Shown: positions 32,986 through 48,638, counted from the first letter of the stretch. The stretch is DNA of 64,000 nucleotides from Candidatus Marinacidobacterales bacterium (GCA_965237955.1 OZ250169.1:1376001-1440000), one strand, 5' to 3'. Made by a program: numbers and translations. Notes: a model not told the origin generated them from the letters alone.

Positions 32986-33546
32986 CTATCTCTTCGCGTC
33001 GATCTTAAAGTGCGCGCGCCGGTTGCGCTGGTGGCAGCTTTCAGTTTCCTCGGGACACAGCAGGAGCTCCTCGCCAAAGGATCTCATCTTGAGCCGGTTG
33101 GCGGGAATTCCCAGCGACTGAAGATACTCCATCGCAGCTTTGGCACGCCTCTCACCGAGGGCCAGGTTGTACTGATCGGAACCCTGGCTGTCGCAGTGGC
33201 CTTCGACCTGAATGACGACCTTGTTGTAGCTGAGATTGAGCCAGTCGGCGTTGTTCGACAACGCTGTACGTGCGTCCTCGCGTAGCGTGGACTTATCGAG
33301 GTCGAAGTGCACGTCGCTGAGGTTCCGCTGCAGCTCCGTGACCGTGGCACGCTGAAACAGCTCAGCTTCCGTCGGTTCCGGCGGCGGTGGCGGTGGTGGT
33401 GGCGGCGGTGGCGGCGGAGGTGGCGGTGGCTCCTCCGCAGGTGGTGGCGGTGGCGGTGGCGGCTCCTTGCCGCAACCGGCCAACCCCAAGACGAGAGTGA
33501 GAGCAAAGACGAGCAATCCCAGGGAGGCTATCCAAGATCTTTTCAC
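32986..33546 (-). CDS. pal: Peptidoglycan-associated lipoprotein with poly-Pro linker
   Basis: GGAGG RBS, lipobox LAGC, EGHCD, YNLALGERRA, NRRA. Confidence 0.9.
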   Translation of the reverse strand: MKRSWIASLGLLVFALTLVLGLAGCGKEPPPPPPPPAEEPPPPPPPPPPPPPPPPPEPTEAELFQRATVTELQRNLSDVHFDLDKSTLREDARTALSNNADWLNLSYNKVVIQVEGHCDSQGSDQYNLALGERRAKAAMEYLQSLGIPANRLKMRSFGEELLLCPEETESCHQRNRRAHFKIDAKR

Positions 33547-33758
33547 GTACTCACCTCCTGCGCGGTTTTCGATCGCGCTTCTCGAACCATCGCGCAGTAC
33601 CTTAGTTTGAATTGTCGAGAAGCGTTTCAACTGATTGAGCCAACGAGGCAGGACCCTCAACTGGCGCGATAGTCTAATCGCGTGAACTGCAACTTGTCAA
33701 CAATAGGGGGAAAAAAGACGAGCCGTAACCCCCCCCGCGGTTCGCCGTGGTTGCGTGT

Positions 33759-34250
33759 TCAGGCGACCTCATCGAGAAAGTATCGGTGGACGCGGGTATC
33801 CGTCGAAAGCTCGGGATGGAAGGTACTCACCAGGATTCGTCCCTCGCGGGCGAGAACTGCTCGCCCTCGGTGTTTCGCGAGCGTGCGAACCTCGGCGCCG
33901 GTGCGAGAGATGACAGGCGCTCGAATAAAGACCATGGGCACCGGCTCGTCGCCGAGCTCCGAACACGGCTCGAAGCACTCGTGACTATCGATTTGCCTGC
34001 CGTAGCCGTTGCGCTCGACGTCGATGTCCATGAAGCCGAGAGAGCCTTGTGATGGTTTGGTCACTCTGCGCGCCAGGAGGATTGCGCCCGCGCACGTGCC
34101 ATAGAGCGCACCGCCAGCTTCGTAGAAGGCGCGGAGCGGTTTGATCAGGTCTTCCTCCTGTATGAACTTGAGCATCGTCGTGCTCTCACCCCCGGGGAGG
34201 ATGAGAGCACGGAGCCCTCGAGCTGGGAGGCTTTACGGATCGGATGCGTC
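33759..34250 (-). pseudogene. pdxT: 5'-truncated second copy of pdxT (left island boundary)
   Basis: Aligns to 47150-47638; lacks the N-terminal GVLALQG and has a 1-bp deletion near 34214. Confidence 0.9.
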
Positions 34251-34269
34251 CCCAATTTCGTGGAAAAAG

Positions 34270-34547
34270 AATGGCGCTCCTCCACTTCAGTTTCTCCGCT
34301 CCGCATGCCGAACACTTGAGCCGGGCAAAGCCCGCTTCTGCGACGCCACAATCTAGGTAGCGCGCGACGACGGTATCCACGAAGCGGCGCCAGTAACCAT
34401 ACTTTTTTTCGAAGCGCTCATCCCCAGAGAGCTTTCACATCCTTCGTAGTACAACTCGACGAGCTGATACAGGCGAGTGGCCCGGACATCGCGGGGACGG
34501 TACAGCCGAGGTGGGTCGAGAGCGGCGGAGGATGTGGCCAGGCCCAT
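34270..34547 (-). mobile_element. IS91-family transposase N-terminal zinc-binding fragment, frameshifted
   Basis: YRPR...LYQLV...YLDCG...GFARLKCSACG spread over three frames. Confidence 0.75.
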
Positions 34548-35004
34548 AGGGCCTGTCCATCGGCGAAGTCCATGCCAGCGCTAGCTCGCTCCTTGGTGCG
34601 AACGTCAAGCGCAAACCGGTTGAGGCGCATGAGTCTTTACGGGCGGTAGTGGGAGCGTTCAAACGGATCGTCAACAAGCGTTGACACCGGGCTGGCGCCT
34701 TTGTGGCGTAAACCGTGGTAAGTGCTGGGCGCCGGTTGCTTGGGCTCGGCGAGTTTGGTGCAAAACGCTCCAGACTCCCGCGCCGAGGGCCACGACGATC
34801 GCCATGGCGAGAACGAACGGGGGAGGGAAGGACGGTGTTTCCATTGACCCACCCATGAATCTGTGGCAGTCTTCCCTTGGTTTTTGCGGCTGATTCCACC
34901 CGGAGAACTTCGCAAGCAGCCGCGGCGGGGCATATTGGCGGTTTGTGCCCAACCACGAAGTTGAGGAAACGCTTCCGGCACAACGCACGACGTCCACTTC
35001 AACC

Positions 35005-36449
35005 GGAGATGCCCCTGAGATAGTTGAAGGTTAGGAGTGGCGGCTCCTAAGGCCGGGTTCGATAGAATCCGGCTGTGAAGGAAAAAGAAAGGAGCCACCA
35101 CGATGTCAAATTACCAAATCATCGATGCGAAGAACAGGAAGAAGCTTCGAGAGATACTGAGCTCGAAGGGGCAAGCTCTGTTGCCGTTCTTGGATGCGAT
35201 TGAGCGAACCGAGATAGCGATCGACGAAGTGATCGACGTTGCTGGCCGAGCGACGATCGAAGCGGTCTTGGATCTGTCAGCCCAAAGTGTGGCTGGGGAG
35301 AAACACCCGGGGAAGAAGGGTAGCGATGTTCGCTGGCACGGCCGGCAGGGTGGCGTAGTAAGCCTTGCGGAGCGGAAGTTGAGAGTGAGCCGGCCACGTC
35401 TGCGGCGTAAGGGAAAGGCAGAGGGAGGGGAGGTTGCGATTCCTGCCTACGAAGCGGTGAACAACTCGTCTCGGCTGAGCCAACGCATCTGGGAAATCCT
35501 GATGCTGGGTGTGTCGACGCGCAAGTACGCGTCGGTTCTTCCCGAGATGGCGGAGACGGTAGGGGTTAGCAAGAGCGAGGTGAGCCGTGAGTTCGTGGAA
35601 GCAAGCGCGGAGCAGTTGCAGGGGCTGATGGAGCATCCGCTGGACGAGCTGGAGATCGCGGTCGTGTACCTGGACGGGATTCGCTTCGGCGAGCACCACG
35701 CGCTGGCGGCAATCGGCGTAGATACAGAGGGATACAAGCATGTTCTGGGGCTTCGGGATGGAGCATCGGAGAACCAGATAGTGTGCAAGGCGCTGCTGGA
35801 GGACCTGGTCGAACGAGGCCTGAGCCCAGAGCGGTGTCGGCTGTTCGTGATCGATGGCTCCAAGGCGCTACGGGTCGCCGTCGACGCTGTGTTCGGTACC
35901 CACAACAAGGTCCAGCGTTGCAGGAAGCACAAGGAGCGCAATGTGCTCGGTTATCTGCCGCAGGAGCTGAAGCCGCAAGTGCAAGCGAGCCTGCGTTCGG
36001 CCTGGCAGCTCCCAGCAAAGAAGGGCAAAGAGCGGTTGGAGCAACAGGCGAAGTGGCTCGAGGACGACTACCCCTCGGCGGCGGAGAGCATCCGGGAGGG
36101 GCTTGACGAGATGTTCACCATCAACGAGCTCGACCTCCCCGCATCTCTGAAACGCTGCCTTGGATCGACGAACATCATCGAGTCGTGCTTCAGCGGTGCG
36201 CGAGGTCGTACCCGTCGCGTCACCCGCTGGCGCAATGGCAAGATGGTTCTGAGATGGGCCGCTTCGGCTCTGCTCGCCACGGAGAAAAATTTCCGTCGTA
36301 TCATTGGATACCAATCGCTACCGATCCTCGAAGCGAAGTTAGCGGAGGTCACTGAGAATCAAGCGCTCGACAAGCACGCCAAAGTCGGGTAAACCATGTG
36401 TCAGGAGCCGCCACCACCTCGAACCTTCAACTATGGTGGGGGCACCTCC
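35005..36449 (+). mobile_element. IS256-family insertion sequence, transposase 35103-36392
   Basis: GVSTR, YLDG, IDGSKAL, QRCRKH, TNIIES; TIRs ggagatgcccctgagatagttgaagg / ccttcaactatggtgggggcacctcc; 8-bp TSD CTTCAACC (34997-35004, 36450-36457). Confidence 0.95.
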
Positions 36450-36971
36450 CTTCAACCGGGCAGTCTATGGCACGCGTTTACATATCTTCGACGTTCGAAG
36501 ATCTTGGGAGGGAGCGTGCCGCCGCCGCCATGGCCCTAAGGCGTCTCGACTGTCACCCAATCGCCATGGAAGACTACGTGGCTTCCGACACTCGGCCGCT
36601 TGAGAAGTGCCTGGATGATGTTCGGAACTGCCAAATCTATCTCGGCATCGTCGCGCGGCGTTACGGATATCGTCCACCGGATCACGACAAGAGCGTCACC
36701 GAGCTCGAGTATGAGGAGGCGCTGAAGGCTGGTCTCCCCTGTCTCATTTTCCTCCTAGCCGACGACGCGGCTTGGCCGAGCGAGTGGATCGATACGGGTA
36801 AGGACAAAGCTTCTGTCGAGGCGTTCCGGCGCCGGCTGCGTAGGAGACACACCACGAGCTACTTCAGCGAGACCCCGAAGCTGGAGACGTTGGTCACCAC
36901 CGCTGTCGCCCTACTACAGAATACCGTTCGCCCGCCGCGGATCGTGATCCCTCCGCTGCTTCCGTACCTAA

Positions 36972-38248
36972 GTAGTCTTTTTCATAAGTACAGTGACGTA
37001 TATTTAAGTTGCTGAAAGAGCGCCTCTCTGGCATGATTCTGCCCATTGGAGCAGATAAATGCCTAGAGAATCGCCGTTTGACATTGAGTTGACCGTCGAC
37101 GAGCACGATATCCTTGAAGAAACAGCCAGAGCATATACGTCACCGTATATCGATGTTGTTCGTGCAAAGATCATTCTGTATGCCGCCGAAGGCCTGACGA
37201 ACAAGGAGATTGGAGAGCGCCTCGACACTCCGCGACAGATCGTGAGCAAGTGGCGGAAGCGTTTTTTCGACCAACGCCTGGCAGGGCTGCAAGAGCAGCC
37301 CCGCCGGGGGCGGCCCGGCCAGTTTTCCCCCCTCCGTCGTCGTCGCCGTAAAGGCTCTCGCGTGTGAGTTGCCGCACCAAACTGGACTGCCGCTCTCACG
37401 ACTCAGCACCGCGGACCTCCGTCGAGCCGCGATCGACCGTGGGATCGTGGCGAACATCGGACAGACGACCATCTGGCGTTGGTTGAGTGAGGACGCCATT
37501 AAGCCCTGGACCCATCGTAGCTGGGTGTTCCCGCGCGACCCGGACTTCGAAGCCAAAGCAGCTCCCATTCTCGACCTCTACCAAGGACGTTGGCGTCGTA
37601 AGCCCTTCTCTGGAAACGAGTTCGTCATCAGCGCCGATGAGAAACCCCGTATCCAGTGCCGGCTTCGCACATACCCGACGACTTCGACGGCTCCAGGGCG
37701 GCCGATGCGCATCGAGCATGAGTACTCTCGTGAAGGCACGGTGAACTACCTTGCCGCATGGGATGTTCACCGCGCGAAAGTCTTCGGTCATTGCGAACCG
37801 AAGAGCACGATCGTCTCCTTCGAGCGCTTCGTCGGGCAAGTCATGCGTCGCAAGCCCTATCGCACCGCGAAGCGAGTCTTCTGGATCGTCGATAACGCTT
37901 CCATTCATCGCGGCAAAGCTTCTGTCGAGCGCTTCCGGCAACAGTGGCCTAATTCCGTACTCGTTCATACCCCAACCCATGCCAGCTGGCTCAATCAAGT
38001 CGAGATCTTCTTCTCTATCGTTCAAAGAAAGGTCCTCACCCCGAACGACTTCTTGGCACCCGACGACATCCCTTTCCATCTTTCCAAGTTCGAACGCTAC
38101 TACGAGGACATCGCTCGACCCTTTCAATGGAAATTCACCCGCAAAGACCTCAAACAGCTGATGAAACGCCTTGCCGTATACGAACCTCGTCTTGCTTCCG
38201 CCGCTTGACCGTTGAAAAATACGTCACCGAACTTTCGGGATAGCGTAC
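36972..38248 (+). mobile_element. IS630-family element, orfA 37059-37367 and orfB 37369-38208
   Basis: HTH (WRKRF...GL...PRRGRP), DEK, DN, ASWLNQVE; frame change at TTTTCCCCCC; ends GTA...TAC flanked by duplicated TAA. Confidence 0.92.
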
Positions 38249-39108
38249 TAAGCGACCGCAGCACGCAACATTTTGAGCTGCGGCAAGCCCTGACCCGGCA
38301 TCAACATACCAAACTGCGGCGTCCCATGGTCGTCTTCGTGCACGGTGACGAGCGGCAAGCTCATAGTGCGTTCATTCAGAGACTTCAAGAGGTGATTCTT
38401 CCCGAGCTGTTGCGACTCGATCCAAAGACGCACAAGATTGATCGGTTGCTCGTCCGATGGAGTGAGCCGTTAGCCAACCTGCAACAGCGCAAGGACCGCC
38501 TGCAGCTGCGTTTGACTGAAGCGCTCAAGCATCTTCGCTCCGGCGCGTCCACGGATTATCGTCCCTGGTCTAGTCGTGAACTCGCAGTGCAACTCGCGAG
38601 ACATCAGTGCCCCGTGATGGTCTGGTCTTCCGTTCTTAGTAGCGACTGGCAGTTCAACGATCCGAGGCTCATCGAAGAATGGCTCTCCGCTTGGTCCGCC
38701 TGGCCCGATCTCCCCCATGGCCAGCTGTTGATGATCGTTCTGAGCATCCTTTACAGGGACGTTTCGCAATTCGGCCTTTTGAGACGTTGGAAGGTCCGCA
38801 AACGAAATGAGGCTATCGAATCGTTCTTAACGAAGCTTGGCTTCTCGAAGCTCTCCGGAATTTCGGGCGTCACCCTGGAGCGTCTTGAGGGGGTGAGCGA
38901 GACGGACGTGCTTCTCTGGATCGACGACCAGCTTGCCGAGTTCGCTCGTGAGACGAGGGCCGTGGACTCCGCGCCCCGCGTCATCGCCGAGAAACTCACA
39001 CCCTCGGTGCGTGAGTTCTTCGCCAGCTCGAAAGAGCTGAGCGAATCAGGAGGTGTCCCCATGGAAACCCTCGCGATCGCTTTGCGGCGCCAGCTCGCGG
39101 AATGCCTA

Positions 39109-39235
39109 GTCCCCTGGATCTTTGATTACTATACAAAGTTAGGCTTTTCGCCAGCCCATAATATTCATAAGATTCATGCACTTAGAAGTGTTTCGGCAAG
39201 CTCTGCTTTATCTAGTTTGTTCTGATACAGGGGAC
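39109..39235. mobile_element. MITE-A copy 1 (127 bp, IS630-derived)
   Basis: cTA-GTCCCCTGGATC...GATACAGGGGAC-TAg; near-identical copy at 43917-44043. Confidence 0.9.
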
Positions 39236-39258
39236 TAGCCGAAGGAAGGCAGTGAACG

Positions 39259-40254
39259 ATGGCAGCCTGGTATCGCGGCGCGGGAGTACGGGAGGCGGCG
39301 GAGGCTCGCATGGAGCTGCCAGAATCGTTACTCGAGCACCACAACGACCCGGTCGGATATATCGCGGATCCCGGCCTCATCGATGCCGTCAACGTTGCGC
39401 TTCATTTGGGGCAGCCGCTCCTCGTGACCGGGCAGCCCGGCACGGGTAAGACGCAACTTGCATACAGTATTGCTTGGGAGCTCGGATTGGAGCCGCTACT
39501 CAAATTCGAGACCAAATCGACAAGCGTCGCGCGGGATCTCTTCTATACCTACGATGCGCTTGGCAGGTTCCACGCTGCGCAGGCGGGAAACGGTTCCGAC
39601 GATGTGCTCGACTACTTGCGATTCAATGCGCTTGGGCTGGCCATCATCAGGGCCAACGAGGCCCAAGACGTGCGACACGTGGTAAAAGACTCGGCCAAGC
39701 TCGGCAAGCCGTGCCGGTCCGTCGTCCTCATCGATTAAATCGACAAGGCACCGCGCGATTTTCCCAACGACGTTCTCAATGAACTGGAAGGCATGTACTT
39801 CAAGATTCCCGAGCTCGGAAACGTCAGCGTGACAGCACGCCGAAAGTTGCGCCCGGTGCTCGTACTCACGAGCAATACCGAGAGAGATCTAGCGGAGGCT
39901 TTTCTCAGACGCTGCGTTTTCTATCACATCCCGTTTCCGGACGACAAACGTCTAAGGCAGATTGTCCACTCCCGACTGGCCGAGGCGATCGCCGGCGATT
40001 CGGGGGTCCTCGAGGCTGCCACGGAGATCTTTCAACGGTTGCGCGACCCGTCGGCGGGACTTTCGAAACAGCCCTCGACTGGGGAGTTTCTAGCATGGCT
40101 GCGCATTATCAAGCCTGGATCTGACGGGCGGCCTCTGGAGCTGGCTGATGCGACCATGATCGAGCCGACGCTCTGCTCGCTTATCAAGACAGTCGATGAC
40201 CGCCCGAAGGCGCGGGAGCTGCTGCTGGAATGGCTGGAGAGCAAACGAGAGTAA
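39259..40254 (+). pseudogene. MoxR family AAA+ ATPase with TAA at the Walker B Glu (39736-39738)
   Basis: GQPGTGKT, DLFYTYDALGRF, VVLID*IDKAPRDFPND, TSNTERDLAEAFLRRC; both halves in one frame. Confidence 0.9.
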
Positions 40255-42410
40255 GAGAGTCGCCCGACGGCGACCGTCTTTTCGAGTTTTTGGACCAGCT
40301 CCGCCTGGCCGGCTTTCGCATCGGAATCCGGGACTACATCACGGCTCACAGGGTGGCTGCGGCGTGCGAGGGGAAATCGGGTCAGACCGATCCGACCCGC
40401 CTTCGAAATTGGCTGGCGGCCGTGCTCTGCACCAACGCGGAGCAGCAAGACGAATTTCGTCGGCGTTTTCGCGATTGGTGGAATTCGCTCGGCCCGCCCG
40501 AGCCGTGCGCACCGCCTCCCGAACCATGGCGCGATACCGAGAGCGAGGCCATCGTCCGGAGGTCGAATCGCTCGAAGCGAACGGCTATCCAGAGCGTGAT
40601 CCTTGGCGCGCTCGTCCTCGCTGTCTGGATCGTGTATCCGTCGAAAGACCCTGCCCGCGAGGACGCGCCACCAATAGCCGACGAGACCGTAGCGGGCAGG
40701 CCAGCGATAGCCGAACGAGCGGCGACTCCGGATTCCCGGATCTCCGTGCTGGTGGTCGACTCCGACGGAAACCCTATACGTGCGGCTACCGTGTTCGTTG
40801 CAGCCGTCGGCAGCCCCGAAAATGAGTGGGTGTCGCAAGAGACATCGAACTCTGGCGAGGTCATCCTGCCTCTCGAGCCGACGCGGGGCACGAGCGCGCT
40901 TCACGTTAGCCATGTCGACTACTGGCCGCCGAATCCCTACGTGGTTTCCGAGGGCCCGGGTCGACTATCTCTCGACGTTGTACTGACCCGACGAGGCAAC
41001 ACTTGGACCCGATGGCTTGTTCGATATCAAACGAAACTCCAACTCGTCATGATGACGTTACCGCTCCTTCTCGCCGGCTGTTGGTGGAGGTGGAAGCACG
41101 CGCGGCGCGCGCTGATCCTCGAACGGCGCACCGTTCGAGGCAACCGGGAACGGGCAGACGTGGGTTTGCCGGAGCCTCCGCACCGCCTATACGAAGGTGG
41201 TGCGTTTCTCGAGGCCCGGACCGAAGCGCGGCGCTATCGCGGTACCGGTTTTGGCGACCTTGATATTGAAGCGACCGTCGAGCAGACAGTAAGTCACGTG
41301 GGCTGGTACTCACCTGCTTACCGCTCTCGCCTCGGTCTTCCGGCCTACTTGGCGCTCGTGGATCGCGCCGGGTTTCGGGACCAACAGGCTCGGCTAGTCG
41401 ACGAGTTTCTCGACCGCCTCGTCGAAGGAGGTGTACCCGTCGTTCGTTGTTCCTTCGACCGCGACCCGCGGCTGGTTGCCGTTTCGTCACGAACGGACAC
41501 CAAGCAAGTAAGCCTGCGTCGGCTGGCTTCCGCTAACGCCGATCACACTCTGTTGATGTTCAGCGACGGCGCGGGGCTTTCGGACCCGGTTACCGGGCGC
41601 CTCGCGAGCTGGACCGAGCTCTTCGCGTTTTGGAACGAGCGCGCCTTAATGACACCGACTCCGGCGGTTCATTGGGGATGGCGAGAGGTCGACTTGTCGC
41701 GGGCCGGCTTCGGTGTTCAGCCGTTTTCACCGCAATGCTTACAGCTATTCTTGCGGTCGCTGCAATTGTCAGACGGCGCGTATCCAACGCGAGCGCAGTG
41801 GCGGCCACCGTTTCCCGAGATCTTCGCCGAGCGTCCGGCGCGCTGGCTCGACCGGAACGAACTTCGACCGGATGAGCTGGAAGAGCTTTGCCGTCAGCTG
41901 CGCGCGTACCTGGGCGAGGACGGTTATCGCTGGCTCAGCTCGCTCGCGGTCTACCCGGCGCTCGAGTGGTACCTGACGCTCTCGTTGGGGCTAAGTTTGC
42001 GCCGGGTCGATGGCTCGCCAGCGCTGGATGAGGAAAGGCTCCTCAGACTCACGCGGCTGCCCTGGCTGCGCCAGGGCTTCATGCCCGACTGGCTCCGTCT
42101 TCGGCGCATCTCGGGGCTTGACCGAGACGACGAGGAGACGGTACGTGTCTTTCTCAGGAAACTACTGAGCGCGCAAGTTGAACCCGAGGGAAGCCGGTTC
42201 CGCCTTGAATTGGCGCGACCACCCGACGTCAAGAAGCGACGGAGCTGGAAACGCTTCTTTGTCGACTTGCTGCGCGCGGAACCCGCGGATAGTCCGCTCT
42301 TGGACTATGTCTTCGTCACTTTTCTACTGGAGAAAAAGCCCCAAAAGCTCCATTTGCTGGCGCCCCGGAGCTGGCATCGCTGGGTGTATGAACGGGGCCT
42401 GCGCACTCTA

Positions 42411-43593
42411 GTCCCATGGAACAGAAAAAGCTAGACAACACCGGCCCTTCTGTGATCTGCTAAATGCATGAAACACAAGGGCCGGCGAAAAGCCGAATTG
42501 AAGCTGTCGTCTCAAGAAAGCGAAGCGCTGACGCGACTGGCGCGACGCAGCCGTAGTTCGCCGCACCAAGCCTTCCGAGCGAAGATCGTGCTGGATTGCG
42601 CGGCGGGTCTGACGAATATGGAAGTTGCTAGGAAGATGCACACCATGAGGAGCACGGTGGGCAAGTGGCGAAGACGCTTTGTAGAACAACGAATGGAAGG
42701 GTTGTACGACGAACCTCGGCCGAGAGCGGCTCGCAAAATCGGCGATGACCAGATCGAGGAAGTCGTGACCAAGACGCTGGAGACGACTCCAAAGGGGAGA
42801 ACCCATTGGAGTACGCGCTCGATGGCCAAGCATCTTGGGCTGAGTCATTCGACGATTGGACGTATTTGGCGAACGTTCGGGCTTCAACCGCACCGCTCGG
42901 AATCGTTTCGTCTCTCGCAAGACCCACAACTGGTCGAAAAAGTACGCGACGTTGTTGGCCTGTATATGAACCCACCGGATAACGCGGTCGTCCTGTGCGT
43001 CGACGAGAAATCGCAGATTCAAGCGCTCGAGCGTGCTCAACCTGTCCTGCCCATGAGCTTGGGCCAGCCCGAGCGACAAACCCACGACTACATTCGGCAT
43101 GGAACGACTGACCTGTTTGCCGCACTCGACGCCGCAACAGGTGAAGTCTTCGGAAAGTGCTACGCGCGACATCGAGCGCTAGAGTTCAAGAAGTTCCTCG
43201 CTGAGATCGAAGCAGCCGTTCCCAGCGAGTTGGACATCCACGTCGTGCTCGACAATCTCGCCACGCACAAGACACCGGCGATCAAACGCTGGCTTTCCAA
43301 GCGACCTCGGTTCCACTTTCACTTCACACCGACACACGCCTCTTGGCTCAACTTCGCTGAGCGCTTCTTTGGCTTGCTCACCGAACACGCCTTGCGACGA
43401 GGCTCGCACACGAGCGTGCCTCAGCTCCGCGTTGCGATACAAGACTATCTCGATGCTCACAACGAGAACCCAAAGCCGTTCAAGTGGACGAAATCCGCCG
43501 ACCAAATCCTCGAAACCATCGCTCGGTTCGCCCAGCGAACGCTCGATACACATGGCAAATCGAATTTGGACAGTAATTAAAGATCCAGGGGAC
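42411..43593 (+). mobile_element. IS630-family element with intact transposase 42468-43580, inserted at CTAG
   Basis: [25 protein letters not shown]; TIRs GTCCCATGGA.../...TCCAGGGGAC; TA duplication. Confidence 0.95.
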
Positions 43594-43916
43594 TAGGAGT
43601 AAGGACCGCGCCGGTGTTGGCTCTTGCCGCAGGAATCTCTCTCTATGGTCCGTTCGTTGGATCGACGCTTGAATTCGGCAACAACCTCGTGAGCGCCGAA
43701 GCTGCCTCGCGGACGAGTCTGCGGTTGCCCGGATCCGTCGAAGTGCCCCAGCTCGTTGGCTTGCCGGCTGACGCCGCACTAGAGGCCCTCCAGAACGCTG
43801 GTTTGGAGGCTCAGTCGCAAACTCAACCATCGGATCGTCCCGCCAATGAGGTCCTCACGCAGGATCCGATCCCAGGCACGATGGTCGCGCCGGGAACCGC
43901 CGTGGCTCTCGTGCTA

Positions 43917-44043
43917 GTCCCCTGGATCTTTGATTACTACACAAAGTTAGGCTTTTCGCCAGCCCATAAGATTCATAAGATTCATGCACTTAGAATGGTT
44001 TCGGCAAGCTCTGCTTTATCTAGTTTGTTCTGATACAGGGGAC
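43917..44043. mobile_element. MITE-A copy 2 (127 bp)
   Basis: Same as 39109-39235 apart from 4 substitutions seen by eye; CTAG target. Confidence 0.9.
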
Positions 44044-45095
44044 TAGCCGCCGCGACCCCACCTCCCCTCGCAACCCCCAATCGACGGCCTTCGGTGTCGC
44101 TTGCTGCTTTTCCGGCAGAGACAGAAGCCGGACGAGACTCCACCCTTACTGCTACCGCTCGTGATCCCGACGGAGACGAAGTTACGTATACGTGGCGTGC
44201 GGCTGACGGCCGCATCACGGGGAGCGGTCCAAGCGTGACGTGGACTGCACCGGGGAGCGTAGGAGCCGACGCTTCGGTAGCGGTGACGGTGACGGTCGAC
44301 GACGGCAGGGGGGGTCCAGTTCCGAGACCACGAACATACAGGTCCAGGCCCCGACAGGAATCGTTACCGGTGTCGTGTTGACCCAATCGGGTGTCGCGCT
44401 CTCAGGGATCACGGTGACAATCGCGCGCCCAGACGCGGGTGTGTCACAAACTGTCGTTACGGACGCAAACGGTCGTTTTCAAGTTCCTCGGCTTCCGCTG
44501 GGTGCGTACAACGTGGTGGTGGAGATTCCCGGATTTCAAAAATACAGTAGCACCGTAGATGCAGCGGTCGATTCCGTCCCGACGAACGTCGTACTTCAGC
44601 CCGGTCCGGCTAACGGCCCGAGCCGGGATCCGACCGCAGCGGAGCTCTTCCGGGCGTCTTCCGTCAGCGAGCTCCAGCAAAACTTATCCGATATCTACCA
44701 CGATTACGACAGCTCAGAACTTTCTGAAGACGCCCGCGCGACGCTAGCGCGGAACGCCGAGTGGCTCAAGCTCCCCTACAATACGGCGGTCATTCTGGTT
44801 GAAGGTCATGCGGACTCGCGCGGGACAAATGAATACAACTTAGTGCTCGGCGAGAGAGTGGCCCGAGCCGCGATGGAATATCTGCAGGCGCTCGGTGTTC
44901 CCGCGAGTCGACTCAAGTATGTCTCTTACGGGGAGGAGTTTCCGCAGTGCACCGAGGAGAACGAGAGCTGTTGGCAGCGCAACCGCCGCGTTCATTTCAG
45001 AATCGATGCCAAGTAGCAACGCGCTTCGGCGCGCTTTCAACGAAACGCTTCCGTCCGATCGCGATTCTCCATCGCTCCGACTGGCCCCGCCGAAT

Positions 45096-45245
45096 TCAAT
45101 ACAACATTCTGAATCGGATGGTGTGCGGCAGTTGCTTCATCTCGTCGATGACGTGGGGCGGATACTTCTTGCTGAAGTTGGTGATGACGTATCCAATCCG
45201 CTTGTCGGTCTTCAAGTACTGGCCGACTATATTGATTTTGTGCCT
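45096..45245 (-). pseudogene. serA: C-terminal ACT-domain fragment of D-3-phosphoglycerate dehydrogenase
   Basis: Manual translation: INIVGQYLKTDKRIGYVITNFSKKYPPHVIDEMKQLPHTIRFRMLY*. Confidence 0.7.
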
Positions 45246-45385
45246 GCTCACGGAGCTCGTGAGCGGCCGCCACGAGCGGCTAGGCGATGCGGTGTTGGCA
45301 GCGCAGACGGCTTACGCTCACACGGGTGCCCTTCCTGAGCTTCTGAACAACTATCATTTGCTGGGCGATCCGGCGCTTACTCAAC
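45243..45385 (+). pseudogene. Peptidase C25 (gingipain-like) domain-end fragment
   Basis: RLGDAVLAAQ...YHLLGDPAL. Confidence 0.6.
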
Positions 45386-45394
45386 CACACGCTA

Positions 45395-45554
45395 GTCCCC
45401 TGGAACAGAGGTTCGTAGCCTAAAGCTCGACGCCATTTTGTGGGCTGGCGAGGCGTGACGACGAAGTCATATTGGAATATTTCGAGGAGGAACAACGAAG
45501 CCAGCGCGCAAAAAGGGCCCGAGATTTAGGCTACGAACCTCTGTTCCAGGGGAC
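45395..45554. mobile_element. MITE-B (160 bp) with long perfect TIRs
   Basis: ctagtcccctggaacagaggttcgtagcctaaa ... tttaggctacgaacctctgttccaggggactag (33-bp perfect IR including CTAG). Confidence 0.9.
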
Positions 45555-45557
45555 TAG

Positions 45558-45730
45558 TGGGTTGGTACGAGGAGCTCGAGCTCTTCGTGCCAGTTGAGCA
45601 CGACGTGAATGGTGTCGAACTGGGTTTGCCAGTCCTCGCGCTTTGCAGCCAACACTTTTCGTCCACTAGCGGTGATGCGGTAGTAGCGGTGGCGCTGGCC
45701 GGCGCGCTCTACCCAGCGGCCGCGGACCAG
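45558..45730 (-). pseudogene. PadR-like fragment joined to a kinase/beta-propeller-type C-terminal tail
   Basis: WVERAGQRHRYYRITASGRKVLAAKREDW, then IHVVLNWHEELELLVP. Confidence 0.5.
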
Positions 45731-45826
45731 CTGGAGAGAAAAGACGCCGAGCTCGCACAGCCACAACGGGATACGGATCGTCCATCGTTGCGAAGCGTCT
45801 AATGCCGGGGAATGACGCTTCTACCG

Positions 45827-47027
45827 CGTAGGGGTCAATAAACTCGAACGCGCTCCCGCACAGCGGTATCCGGGGCGAGTTCTTGGAGGTCAGATCTGTT
45901 GAATAAAATGTCGCTGTCCAGTATGTACGCCAGTTCTCGAGAGGAGACGCGATGGACTGGACGACAATGCTTGCGTACATCACGGGATTGGTTGATCAGG
46001 AGTTGCCCCTGCGGAATGAGTACCTCGTTGCCGAGAATCGGGTAGTTCGAAATCAGCCCCAGGGCCGTTTGCGCCTGACCGACGGCGAGCGGCGAACTCT
46101 GGCTGAGTCGGAAAACAGCTCGGCAGGCGAGCGCTCGAAGAGGTAGCAAGCATCGTGAGGCCTGAGACGATCCTCGGATGGCACCGCAAGCTTGTCGCGA
46201 GGAAGTTCGATGGTTCCAAGAATCGACGCGTATCCAGGCGACCACGCGTCGACGAAGAAATCAGGAGCTGGTTGTACGCATCGCAACGGAAAATCGCTCG
46301 TGGGGCTACGATCGGATTGCGGAGCGATGGGAAACCTCGAGTATCCAGTGAGCGACAAGACCGTCGGCAACGTCTTGAAACGGCATGGCATCGCGCCCGC
46401 GCCGGAGCGCCGAAAGACCACGACGTGGTTAGGAGTTCGTCCGCTCGCACATGGACGTACTTGCGGCGACGGATTTCTTCACCGCGGAAGTGTGGACCAA
46501 GACCGGGCTCGTCACGTACTACGTGTTGTTCTTCACACATCTTGCAACGCGGCGGTTATATATCACGGGTATCACGCCGTATCCCGACGGGCAGTGGATG
46601 ACCCAGGTGGCTCGGAATGTGACCATGGCGGATGTCGGGTTCTCTCCTCGAGCCGTTAGATCCACAACCGGGACTCCAAGTTCTGCGAGGCGTTTCAGCT
46701 GACCGTCGAAACCGTGCGTATCAGGACCGTCAAACTGCCCGCGAGCCCGAATCTGAATTCATTCGCGGAGCGCTGGGCGAGATCGGCGAAGGACGAGTGC
46801 CTGTCGAAGCTCATCCTCTTCGGGGAGAGGTCGCTTCGGCTCGCGCTGAAACACTATGTCGCGCATTTCCACGAAGAAAAGGAATCACCAAGGCAAGGGC
46901 AATCTATTGTTGTTCCCGGCCGTCGAAAGGATGCGTCGGGTCGAAGGCCTGGTTCGTTGTCGGGAACGGCTCGGCGGACTGCTCCGATACTACCATCGGG
47001 AAGCTGCATGAGTTTTTTGACCATACG
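45827..47027 (+). mobile_element. Degenerate integrase-core (rve/DDE) transposase element
   Basis: RNEYLVAENR, PETILGWHRKL, ATDFFTAEV, PNLNSFAERW across several frames; imperfect IRs cgtaggggtcaataaactc / gagttttttgaccatacg. Confidence 0.75.
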
Positions 47028-47149
47028 GGATCGCGCGCGCGCCGGGACGGCAGCGATTCGAATTCTTTACAGACCCCGCCCGAGCTTTACAGGCGGGCGG
47101 ACCAAAGAATTGGATGATGGATAACCAATTGTCCAGTTTCTTGGAACAG

Positions 47150-47752
47150 TCAAGCGAGATTTTCAAGGAAGTATCGGTGGACGCGAGTATCGGTCGAAAG
47201 CTCGGGATGGAACGTACTCACCAGGATTCGTCCTTCGCGGACGAGAACCGCTTGGCCTCGGTGTTTCGCGATCGTGCTAACCTCGGCGCCGGTGCGAGAG
47301 ATGATCGGCGCTCGAATAAAGACCATGGGCACCGGCTCGCCGCCGAGCTCCGGGCACGGCTCGAAGCTCTCGTGACTGTCGATTTGCCTGCCATAGCCGT
47401 TGCGCTCGACGTCGATGTCCATGAAGCCGAGAGAGCCTTGTGATGGTTTGGTCACTCTGCGCGCCAGGAGGATTGCGCCCGCGCACGTGCCATAGAGCGC
47501 ACCGCCAGCTTCGTAGAAGGCGCGGAGCGGTTCGATCAGGTCTTCCTCCTGTATGAACTTGAGCATCGTCGTGCTCTCACCCCCGGGGAGGATGAGAGCA
47601 CGGATGCCCTCGAGCTGCGACGCTTTGCGGATCTGCGTCGACGGACAGTCCAGCCGTTCCAGCATACGCTGGTGCTCCGCATAGTCTCCCTGCAGAGCAA
47701 GCACACCAACGCCGTCGTGCCGATGGCTGATGGCTGATGGCTGATGGCTCAT
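47150..47752 (-). CDS. pdxT: PLP synthase glutaminase subunit
   Basis: GVLALQG, PGGESTT, GTCAGAI, RNGYGRQ, FIRAP, FHPEL. Confidence 0.95.
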   Translation of the reverse strand: MSHQPSAISHRHDGVGVLALQGDYAEHQRMLERLDCPSTQIRKASQLEGIRALILPGGESTTMLKFIQEEDLIEPLRAFYEAGGALYGTCAGAILLARRVTKPSQGSLGFMDIDVERNGYGRQIDSHESFEPCPELGGEPVPMVFIRAPIISRTGAEVSTIAKHRGQAVLVREGRILVSTFHPELSTDTRVHRYFLENLA

Positions 47753-47756
47753 CGCA

Positions 47757-48638
47757 CTACCAACCACGGGTCGAAAGAAGATCCTTCTCATCCATCGTCG
47801 CGATGTCGAGGCCGGGCATCGGTTCCCCGAGACCTCGCGAGACCTCCACCAGGACCTTGGGATCTTCGTAATGTGTGACGGCCTTCACGATCGCGGCGGC
47901 GCGGGTTGCGGGGTCCTCGGACTTGAAGATTCCCGAGCCGACGAAGACCGTCTCCGCGCCGAGTTGCATGCAAAGCGCGGCGTCGGCCGGCGTCGCCACC
48001 CCGCCTGCGGCGAAGTTGGGAACCGGAAGCTTGCGGTCTCGAGCCACCATCCGCACGAGCTCGTACGGAGCACCGAGGTTTTTGGCCTCGGCCATGAGCT
48101 CCTCGGTGGCCATGACACTCAGGCGGCGCATGTGACCGTTCACAGCGCGCAAGTGGCGCACGGCTTCCACGATGTTGCCCGAGCCCGCCTCGCCTTTGGT
48201 TCGGATCAGCGCGGCGCCTTCGCCGATGCGCCGGAGCGCTTCGCCGAGGTTGCGGCATCCGCACACGAACGGTACGTCGAACGCGAGCTTGTCGACGTGG
48301 TGCTCCTCATCGGCCGGCGTCAACACCTCGCTTTCGTCGATGAAATCCACGCCCATCGCCTGGAGAAGCTGAGCTTCGACGAAGTGGCCGATGCGCACTT
48401 TGGCCATGACGGGAATGCTCACCGTGCGCATGATCTCGTCGATCACGTCGATCGCGGACATCCGCGCCACACCGCCATGCTTGCGAATGTCAGAGGGTAC
48501 CCGCTCGAGAGCCATGACGGACACCGCGCCTGCGTCTTCTGCGATCTTGGCCTGCTCTGCATTGGTCACGTCCATGATGGCGCCGCCTTTGAGCATGTCG
48601 GCGAGGCCGGTCTTGAGTTTCAGTTGTGTTTCGGTCAT
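47757..48638 (-). CDS. pdxS: PLP synthase lyase subunit
   Basis: [42 protein letters not shown]. Confidence 0.97.

Follow-up and report, generated by a model that had tools for sequence, protein, structure and literature searches.

A decaying iSTAND-MoxR-vWA operon with a predicted membrane-spanning vWA protein in a Candidatus Marinacidobacterales genome

In a 64,000-nucleotide stretch of the genome of a Candidatus Marinacidobacterales bacterium (GCA_965237955.1, OZ250169.1:1376001-1440000; hereafter the window), eight open reading frame fragments are interspersed with mobile elements between positions 36467 and 45016 of the plus strand. Do these fragments descend from a single operon, which system did it encode, and could this copy still work? 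We find that the fragments join into three linked genes once four insertions are excised at their target duplications, and that these genes are almost certainly an operon of the MoxR-vWA-iSTAND (inactive STAND) type in a state of decay. The reconstruction is correct, and the locus is likely a further, dead member of a class of ternary systems that had already been predicted. For the intact ancestor we favor, with a probability of about 0.52, an alarm that spans the membrane: on detecting a threat at the cell envelope, it would destroy nicotinamide adenine dinucleotide (NAD+) and so kill or stall the cell.

Three genes restored from eight fragments

The excised segments are 36972-38251, flanked by a CTAA duplication, and 39110-39238, 42412-43596 and 43918-44046, each flanked by a CTAG duplication, and all four duplications are 4 bp long. 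Restored gene 1 has 460 codons including the stop (459 residues). Gene 2, of about 331-332 codons, is interrupted once, by a TAA at codon 160 (39736-39738) that occupies the position of the Walker B Glu of the IDE motif. Gene 3 has 3473 nt, 1 base short of 1158 codons, and its frame changes at a run of seven G nucleotides (44308-44314). The gap between genes 1 and 2 is 3 nt, and genes 2 and 3 overlap by 25 nt. The operon therefore carries six lesions, namely four insertions, the TAA and the frameshift. Its parts are as follows (IS, insertion sequence; MITE, miniature inverted-repeat transposable element; TM, transmembrane segment).

36467-36971, +: gene 1 piece 1, DUF4062 (NIR, TIR-like NADase) domain (PF13271, E 2.4e-26)
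36707-36709, +: codon of the catalytic Glu81 of gene 1, from the alignment
36972-38251, +: IS630-family element between DUF4062 and iSTAND (helix-turn-helix and DDE_3 matches)
38252-39109, +: gene 1 piece 2, iSTAND domain (PF19995, E 3.5e-10, above cut-off)
39110-39238, +: 129-bp MITE, five codons short of the end of gene 1
39239-39255, +: final codons and stop of gene 1, from the reading frame
39259-40254, +: gene 2, MoxR-type AAA+ ATPase (Pfam AAA, above cut-off; Walker A intact, Walker B Glu changed to TAA)
40230-42411, +: gene 3 piece 1, with N-terminal helical domain, TM1, loop domain, TM2, vWA domain and helical linker
40581-40637, +: TM1 of gene 3
between TM1 and TM2, +: outward carboxypeptidase-regulatory-like domain of gene 3
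41031-41087, +: TM2 of gene 3
42412-43596, +: second IS630-family element, just 5' of TM3
43597-43917, +: gene 3 piece 2, TM3 and PASTA (PF03793, E 1.5e-11)
43614-43670, +: TM3 of gene 3
43918-44046, +: second copy of the 129-bp MITE
44047-44314, +: gene 3 piece 3, PKD/Ig domain up to the run of seven G (PKD, PKD_4 and Big_9 matches)
44315-45016, +: gene 3 piece 4, carboxypeptidase-regulatory-like and Pal-like OmpA domains (PF13620, E 1e-14; PF00691, E 2e-16)

The DUF4062 profile of gene 1 also matches the solved structures of KpSwz (PDB 10wc, E 9e-19) and TEP1. Glu81 aligns with the catalytic position that was mutated in KpSwz, and it is invariant in all 8 aligned sequences. The catalytic Glu is likewise present in 36 of 40 DUF4062-iSTAND fusions, the remaining four comprising one Asp, one Lys and two unmatched sequences. 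By both profile and catalytic Glu, gene 1 falls among the DUF4062/NIR NADases. Its second piece scores 41 bits against PF19995 (cut-off 24), and the alignment shows no GKT Walker A, as expected of the inactive STAND domain that defines the third component of the ternary systems. The model of the orthologue in locus L018 (predicted local distance difference test score, pLDDT, 88) gives structural matches to TIR and to AAA+/NB-ARC/ORC folds. DUF4062 stands at the N-terminus, where iSTAND proteins carry a TIR or DRHyd domain, a peptidase or an EAD, and we take DRHyd to cover DUF4062. The length of iSTAND proteins is near constant, 426-499 amino acids in most full-length fusions. In one relative (L023:5074-6171), a short hydrophobic, membrane-like N-terminal segment replaces the enzyme domain. 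The host genome holds this one iSTAND only, with no paralogous or rescuing copy elsewhere.

Gene 2 (331 codons) belongs to the MoxR clade of AAA+ proteins without VMAP-type extensions. Its intact homologues match AAA_5 above the cut-off and conserve the motifs, and the Walker B DE is intact in 14 of 14 of them, whereas the TAA in gene 2 removes the catalytic Glu and truncates the protein. No rescuing MoxR was found elsewhere in the genome, the other MoxR present being of the CoxD type.

In gene 3, PASTA, PKD/Big_9 and OmpA exceed the Pfam cut-offs, and CarboxypepD_reg is found twice, once above the cut-off (E 1e-14) and once below it (E 3e-5). PASTA, PKD and OmpA follow a transmembrane segment, as do the variable, peptidoglycan-associated C-terminal modules of the class. 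Pfam gives no vWA match in gene 3, and the vWA assignment rests on predicted structure: the top five Foldseek matches of the cytoplasmic core model (pLDDT 78) are all to the NorD VWA domain (E 6e-4 to 4e-3). Strands 1 and 4 each end in an Asp (Asp378 and Asp446), as described for iSTAND systems. A profile of 49 sequences gives a weak, in-register alignment to the CoxE of the same genome (E 0.009). Among the sequences of solved structures, a search with the vWA profile found nothing below E 0.02. The N-terminal helical domain is conserved in 14 loci. Judged from sequence, every feature of iSTAND ternary systems that was tested is present, except the CoxE-like N-terminal domain, for which the in-register alignment to the CoxE N-terminus is weak (E 0.066).

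Only TM1 of gene 3 passes the strict hydropathy cut (Kyte-Doolittle 2.08), the other two segments (1.18 and 1.57) failing it. All three hydrophobic segments are, however, found in 50 of 63 homologues and in 153 of the 170 full-length-looking sequences in a set of 197. Positive charges on the two sides of TM1, TM2 and TM3 are biased 45 vs 5, 0 vs 41 and 42 vs 5, an in-out, out-in, in-out pattern that places the vWA domain on the MoxR side of the membrane and two modules outside. It is thus strongly indicated that the vWA protein has three inner-membrane crossings, the N-terminal helical and vWA domains lying inside and the TM1-TM2 loop and the post-TM3 tail outside.

The outward modules vary in length round a constant core, from 28 to 800 amino acids in the loop and from 117 to 1007 in the tail. 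In a census of the 197 vWA homologues with home-made profiles, which left 96 unlabelled, the loop contains carboxypeptidase-regulatory-like domains in 45, WD40 in 26 and PASTA in 4. Among tail domains, FGE (18), WD40 (17), PASTA (11), SLT (8) and IcmF_C (8) are the more frequent, and PKD (4), OmpA (2) and PBP (1) the rarer. PASTA or OmpA is therefore fused to vWA in homologues too, and both together in one tail were seen in 0 of the 197 (96 unlabelled). We considered whether the PASTA, PKD, carboxypeptidase-regulatory and OmpA tail represents a new design, and rejected this in favor of a permutation of known modules. Individual tails (P0018, P0026, P0063, P0031, P0037 and P0005) carry lytic transglycosylase, penicillin-binding protein (PBP) dimerisation and transpeptidase, phosphoesterase, IcmF/TssM and DUF3108 domains.

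Intact operons of the same gene order exist. The order iSTAND gene, MoxR, vWA was found in 12 of 19 fetched loci, seven with DUF4062, four with TIR and one with neither, although the vWA gene is cut by a contig end in 3 of the 12. Two further loci have a TIR or trypsin gene lacking an iSTAND match, and five, including L024, are unresolved, mostly at contig ends. The N-terminal slot of iSTAND thus alternates between DUF4062 and TIR, both NAD-consuming folds. The closest intact operon, L018, shares 47/44%, 69/62% and 49% identity with the three genes and differs in its modules, its loop bearing a WD40 propeller and its tail DUF3108 and IcmF_C. The vWA core family is large (3019 clusters at 50% identity, E up to 1e-30) and, in the surroundings of this genome, patchily distributed, as the core occurs in 4 of 400 other genomes of the phylum. 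No iSTAND was found in 18 other family genomes searched, and a search of 60 genomes for orthologues in close relatives gave two weak N-terminal matches only.

These results leave most of the first-pass annotation standing. Its coordinates and excision scheme all held when the frames were read again, and its assignment to the MoxR-vWA-iSTAND class agrees with the domain matches and with the gene order in relatives. Pfam, together with the predicted vWA fold, bears out its list of domains (DUF4062, iSTAND, MoxR, vWA, PASTA, Ig/PKD, carboxypeptidase-regulatory and OmpA). The approximately three transmembrane segments that it proposed are all clear in homologues, and the DUF4062 match with its retained catalytic Glu speaks for the nucleotide-cleaving effector that it postulated. 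Of the three findings that it named as counter-evidence (no iSTAND match, no intact operon of this order, a PASTA-OmpA part always encoded separately), none was made. It underplayed the six lesions and the very likely non-functional state of this copy.

Decay of the operon and origin of its island

The host genome is a single contig of 8.13 Mb, and every insertion matches a repeat in it. Full-length copies number 4 for the first IS630 element (at 100%), 115 for the 129-bp MITE, 38 for the second IS630 element and 35 for an IS256-family element upstream of gene 1. Both MITE insertions are the same element, of which 107 of 108 end-to-end copies are preceded by CTAG, and the second IS630 also targets CTAG. 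The MITE has its ends and its target in common with the IS630 element at 42412-43596, which is likely its mobiliser. Another element of 163 bp (about 45396-45558, 30 copies) has related ends. The IS256-family element likely displaced the operon promoter; a scan of 34700-36520 found no sigma-70-like promoter.

Public sequencing runs bear on whether the lesions are real. The TAA is unchanged in contigs of runs X1, X2, X4 and X5 (studies P1 and P2), and the run of seven G is present without a gap in those of X1, X2 and X4, although the records name no sequencing platform and one of the two studies may have supplied the assembly. In run X6 (study P3), one contig passes straight from 43913 to 44043, the second MITE being missing (short side 106 nt), and a contig of X5 joins 36967 to 38248 without the first IS630, the short side of 25 nt making this junction weak. 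These empty sites independently confirm the cut points of the first-pass annotation. No empty site for the second IS630 or the first MITE was found in the 8 of 23 listed runs examined. X5 carries the TAA, and X6 covers the TAA region at a depth of about 3 with no difference listed, so that the nonsense change is likely older than the second MITE and the first IS630. Since the stop and the frameshift recur across two studies, and alleles without two of the insertions exist, the locus is best regarded as a real and recently decaying pseudo-operon.

The operon has also collected more insertions than expected, four in 5.85 kb compared with the 0.11 that an even distribution would give (post hoc Poisson P about 6e-6). 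Three of its 10 CTAG sites are occupied, compared with about 2.4% genome-wide, and the 20-kb bin that contains it is the densest in the genome for five counted element families. Genome-wide, MITEs are rarer within long frames (17 of 115) than are CTAG sites (2865 of 7695). The excess is compatible with lost selection on the operon. Decay probably began with the nonsense change in MoxR, followed by accumulation of IS and MITE copies under relaxed selection, some of them still polymorphic. RNA run X9 yielded IS pieces and one 262-nt MoxR piece at a depth of 2.3, which has no bearing on transcription. In L024 (1177-7556), a locus of the same class, the vWA gene is split and parted from MoxR by an IS-like insertion, and decay of such systems may be common.

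The operon lies on a 13-kb island bounded by a direct repeat of the 3' part of pdxT. The features at and near its edges are listed here.

32986-33660, -: host Pal-like lipoprotein gene adjoining the island (identity to the OmpA tail of gene 3, 64%)
33759-34250, -: duplicated 3' part of pdxT, left boundary, 93% identical to 47150-47639
34216-34568, -: remnant of an IS91-like transposase zinc-binding domain, frameshifted, left edge (Pfam E 1e-4, below cut-off)
35005-36449, +: IS256-family element, ending 17 nt 5' of gene 1
45118-45393, +: downstream debris, a fragment repeated at several places in the genome, no Pfam match
47150-47791, -: complete pdxT, right boundary (TIGR03800 above cut-off)

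The fragment at 45118-45393 presumably resembles the end of a peptidase C25, judging from a motif. A PadR fragment (45557-45766, -) and a broken integrase-core IS (45922-47124) lie further downstream. In a relative (G006), both flanks are collinear, pdxT is single and the site is empty, and matching relatives show one full-length pdxT match. Over about 214 nt the pdxT repeat is 99% identical, and elsewhere it has diverged further (of 138 codons, 13 differ synonymously and 12 non-synonymously), which suggests that a relative's DNA entered by homologous integration. The repeat could be the product of rolling-circle transposition and subsequent homologous integration.

The adjoining gene is a second Pal-like lipoprotein gene, distinct from the tol-linked pal, and throughout the family and order (including L031-L058) its place beside pyrF, and in many cases pdxT, is conserved. 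In G008 (C4, about 1543500-1549700), pdxT and the Pal-like gene are about 6 kb apart, compared with about 1-2 kb in most family genomes, and this spacing suggests that the site may receive other insertions as well. In family genomes, the Pal-like gene linked to pdxT/pyrF shares 61-73% identity with the OmpA tail of gene 3, which both protein and DNA trees place among these Pal-like genes. The tail falls below the Pal equivalog TIGR02802 (115 bits vs 125) and is a fused domain from a Pal-like paralogue, the tol-linked pal being elsewhere. The protein tree alone makes it sister to the local copy, inside a clade of the family (90/57, bootstrap not settled). Recent local duplication of the neighboring gene was rejected, as third positions are 44% identical, the DNA tree disagrees and genes of relatives are closer at the protein level (up to 73% vs 64%). 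Trees and identities together indicate capture from the Pal-like lineage of the family, long enough ago to saturate third positions. Identity to the OmpA tail of another vWA homologue is only 28%, so that OmpA tails arose more than once.

A candidate trans-membrane alarm and its rivals

How might the intact ancestor have worked? The vWA domain would register binding to, or strain on, the outward modules (PASTA, Ig and Pal-like peptidoglycan-associated). A MoxR hexamer would then grip the vWA protein and remodel it with ATP, as NorQ, in a MoxR-vWA chaperone pair, remodels NorD with ATP. Remodelling would release or oligomerise the iSTAND protein and so turn on the DUF4062 NADase, and the ensuing loss of NAD+ would result in abortive infection. 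Phage entry, a predator or epibiont, or an envelope-directed effector are candidate triggers.

The motor step of this scheme draws on NorQ-NorD, and the NADase step on three preprints of 2026, which identify DUF4062 as an anti-phage NADase responsible for NAD+ depletion in Swarozyc, Avs2, Vulcan and Vesta (10.64898/2026.05.01.722283, 2026.06.25.731849 and 2026.09.04.749371). The sensing step leans on the topology and variability described above, on a proposal for a related class (PMC10907252) and on the Esr pathway. In this copy the outward modules are of non-enzymatic, binding kinds, and the free variation of such modules round a constant core is the pattern expected of sensors. For the order of signalling, from vWA through MoxR to the iSTAND effector, with NAD+ loss as the output, we see an even chance.

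Several observations weigh against the alarm. Kaur et al. argue that iSTAND is the sensor, perhaps of nucleic acid, and that the vWA tails are effectors or decoys (PMC7159879, PMC8195603). Tails of some homologues are enzyme-like (SLT, PBP transpeptidase, phosphoesterase; by domain only), which suits an effector role. The vWA metal ion-dependent adhesion site is degenerate, D-R-A-G-F replacing DxSxS, the Foldseek matches to NorD have low TM-scores (by target, 0.33-0.37), and TM2 of this copy is weak. PADLOC has no model matching genes 1 or 3, NCBIfam likewise has no match for gene 1 or for piece 1 of gene 3, and the scanned remnants of the island yielded no further recognisable gene of known defence systems. 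Our literature search, which covered few subscription journals, found only computational papers on iSTAND systems and no experimental test of any.

The direction put forward by Kaur et al. (PMC7159879 section 35 and PMC8195603) is the strongest competitor, if a rather doubtful one. Here iSTAND would sense an invader in the cytoplasm, DUF4062 would make an ADP-ribose-type signal or set a threshold, and MoxR would deploy the vWA protein's outward effectors or decoys to block entry or remodel the wall. In keeping with this, certain tails resemble enzymes or duplicate envelope proteins of the host (SLT, PBP, IcmF, Pal-like). Nevertheless, the DUF4062 proteins tested so far deplete NAD+ as a terminal step, no downstream nucleotide receptor is seen in the operon, and the variability sits on the vWA protein outside the cell, the length of iSTAND being near constant. 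We consider it distinctly unlikely that the system had nothing to do with defence and was an envelope-maintenance or stress machine, in which MoxR and vWA would remodel a membrane client and the PASTA and Pal-like domains would tether it to peptidoglycan. The characterised MoxR-vWA pairs are indeed chaperones, NorD being also the top structural match, and the outward domains are ordinary envelope modules; yet the patchy distribution, the island location, the NADase fold with its retained Glu and the free exchange of tails all speak against housekeeping.

A partly functional operon, or lesions that are assembly errors (a homopolymer slip, read-through of the TAA, a free DUF4062 fragment that acts by itself), has in its favor that the frameshift falls within a run of seven G, that the first MITE alters the last five residues of gene 1 only, that a 205-codon frame keeps the whole DUF4062 domain, and that alleles without two insertions exist. 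We regard this as highly improbable. The TAA and the run of seven G are identical in the contigs of P1 and P2 (one of which may be the source sample), the TAA takes away the catalytic Walker B Glu and cuts MoxR short, and the IS630 parts the tail from the membrane core.

An extension of the alarm is tentative and, in our judgment, improbable as a whole. Membrane iSTAND systems would be trans-envelope guard receptors with integrated decoys, in which copies of host envelope proteins fill two independent periplasmic slots (the Pal-like domain of the family here; elsewhere PASTA, lytic transglycosylase, PBP and TssM/IcmF), seizure of those proteins by a phage, predator or rival effector triggers MoxR-driven NAD+ destruction, and a single nonsense change may switch the system off when it is costly. 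If true, they would be a bacterial counterpart of the integrated-decoy receptors of plants, acting across the inner membrane.

Comparison with known systems

NorQ-NorD and CoxD-CoxE resemble the operon in the vWA fold and in the weak, in-register CoxE alignment, but are soluble housekeeping chaperones for metal insertion, with a full metal site and no third component. In the Esr pathway of Actinomycetota, experiments show that the sensing of epibionts needs a surface Ig/beta-propeller protein whose gene accompanies those of MoxR and vWA (10.64898/2026.09.08.750141). The pathway shares with our locus MoxR and vWA genes that accompany a surface sensor of such domains, and differs in its separate secreted sensor, kinase/FHA output and monoderm host; iSTAND or NADase components are not described in the accessible part of that report. 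For the VMAP ternary systems, signalling from a vWA-protein sensor through MoxR to the third component's N-terminal effector was proposed in 2024 (PMC10907252). Those with CLec sensors diversified by diversity-generating retroelements share this proposal with the alarm described here, but VMAP is not iSTAND, and diversification by reverse transcriptase contrasts with domain capture.

Swarozyc, Evangelion, PsAvs2, Vulcan and Vesta have the same DUF4062 domain and catalytic Glu. These systems sense phage proteins in the cytoplasm through fused or adjacent modules, whereas in the operon the predicted NADase is coupled to a MoxR motor and a membrane-spanning partner. The main texts of the three DUF4062 preprints mention neither iSTAND nor MoxR. 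Now that DUF4062 is a proven NADase, the DUF4062 versions of iSTAND systems provide a direct readout, in NAD+ level and a Glu mutant, of the sensing site and of the direction of the signal. The class is large, and its value for experiment lies in the intact relatives L018, L013 and L020 rather than in the broken copy.

The closest likeness is to the iSTAND ternary class (vWA-MoxR subsystem 2) defined by Kaur, Burroughs, Iyer and Aravind in 2020 (PMC7159879) and extended later (PMC8195603). There, TIR or DRHyd domains are placed on iSTAND, N-terminal transmembrane segments occur in about 28% of systems, PEGA, OmpA, PASTA and Sel1 follow a transmembrane segment, and a multicellular habit of the host is statistically associated with the systems (PMC7159879). 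The first-pass annotation had hinted at an undescribed architecture, which is not borne out, as the transmembrane segments and OmpA/PASTA tails are listed in that paper; its remark that the architecture is not characterised stands in the experimental sense and fails for the prediction. The accessible text of PMC7159879 contains no match for DUF4062 and does not single out the TM1-TM2 loop as a second variable outward slot, and a search of two of its supplementary files returned no match either. The operon shares with the class the iSTAND, MoxR and vWA genes, the nucleotide-processing N-terminus, the N-terminal transmembrane segments and PASTA/OmpA behind a transmembrane segment, and differs in being a pseudo-operon. 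To this description we make small additions: two swappable outward slots, a tail from a Pal-like gene of the host family, and a probable order of decay. The locus cleanly documents, as a case from nature, how a domain was captured from a host envelope gene and how a defence-type operon is lost in wild populations.

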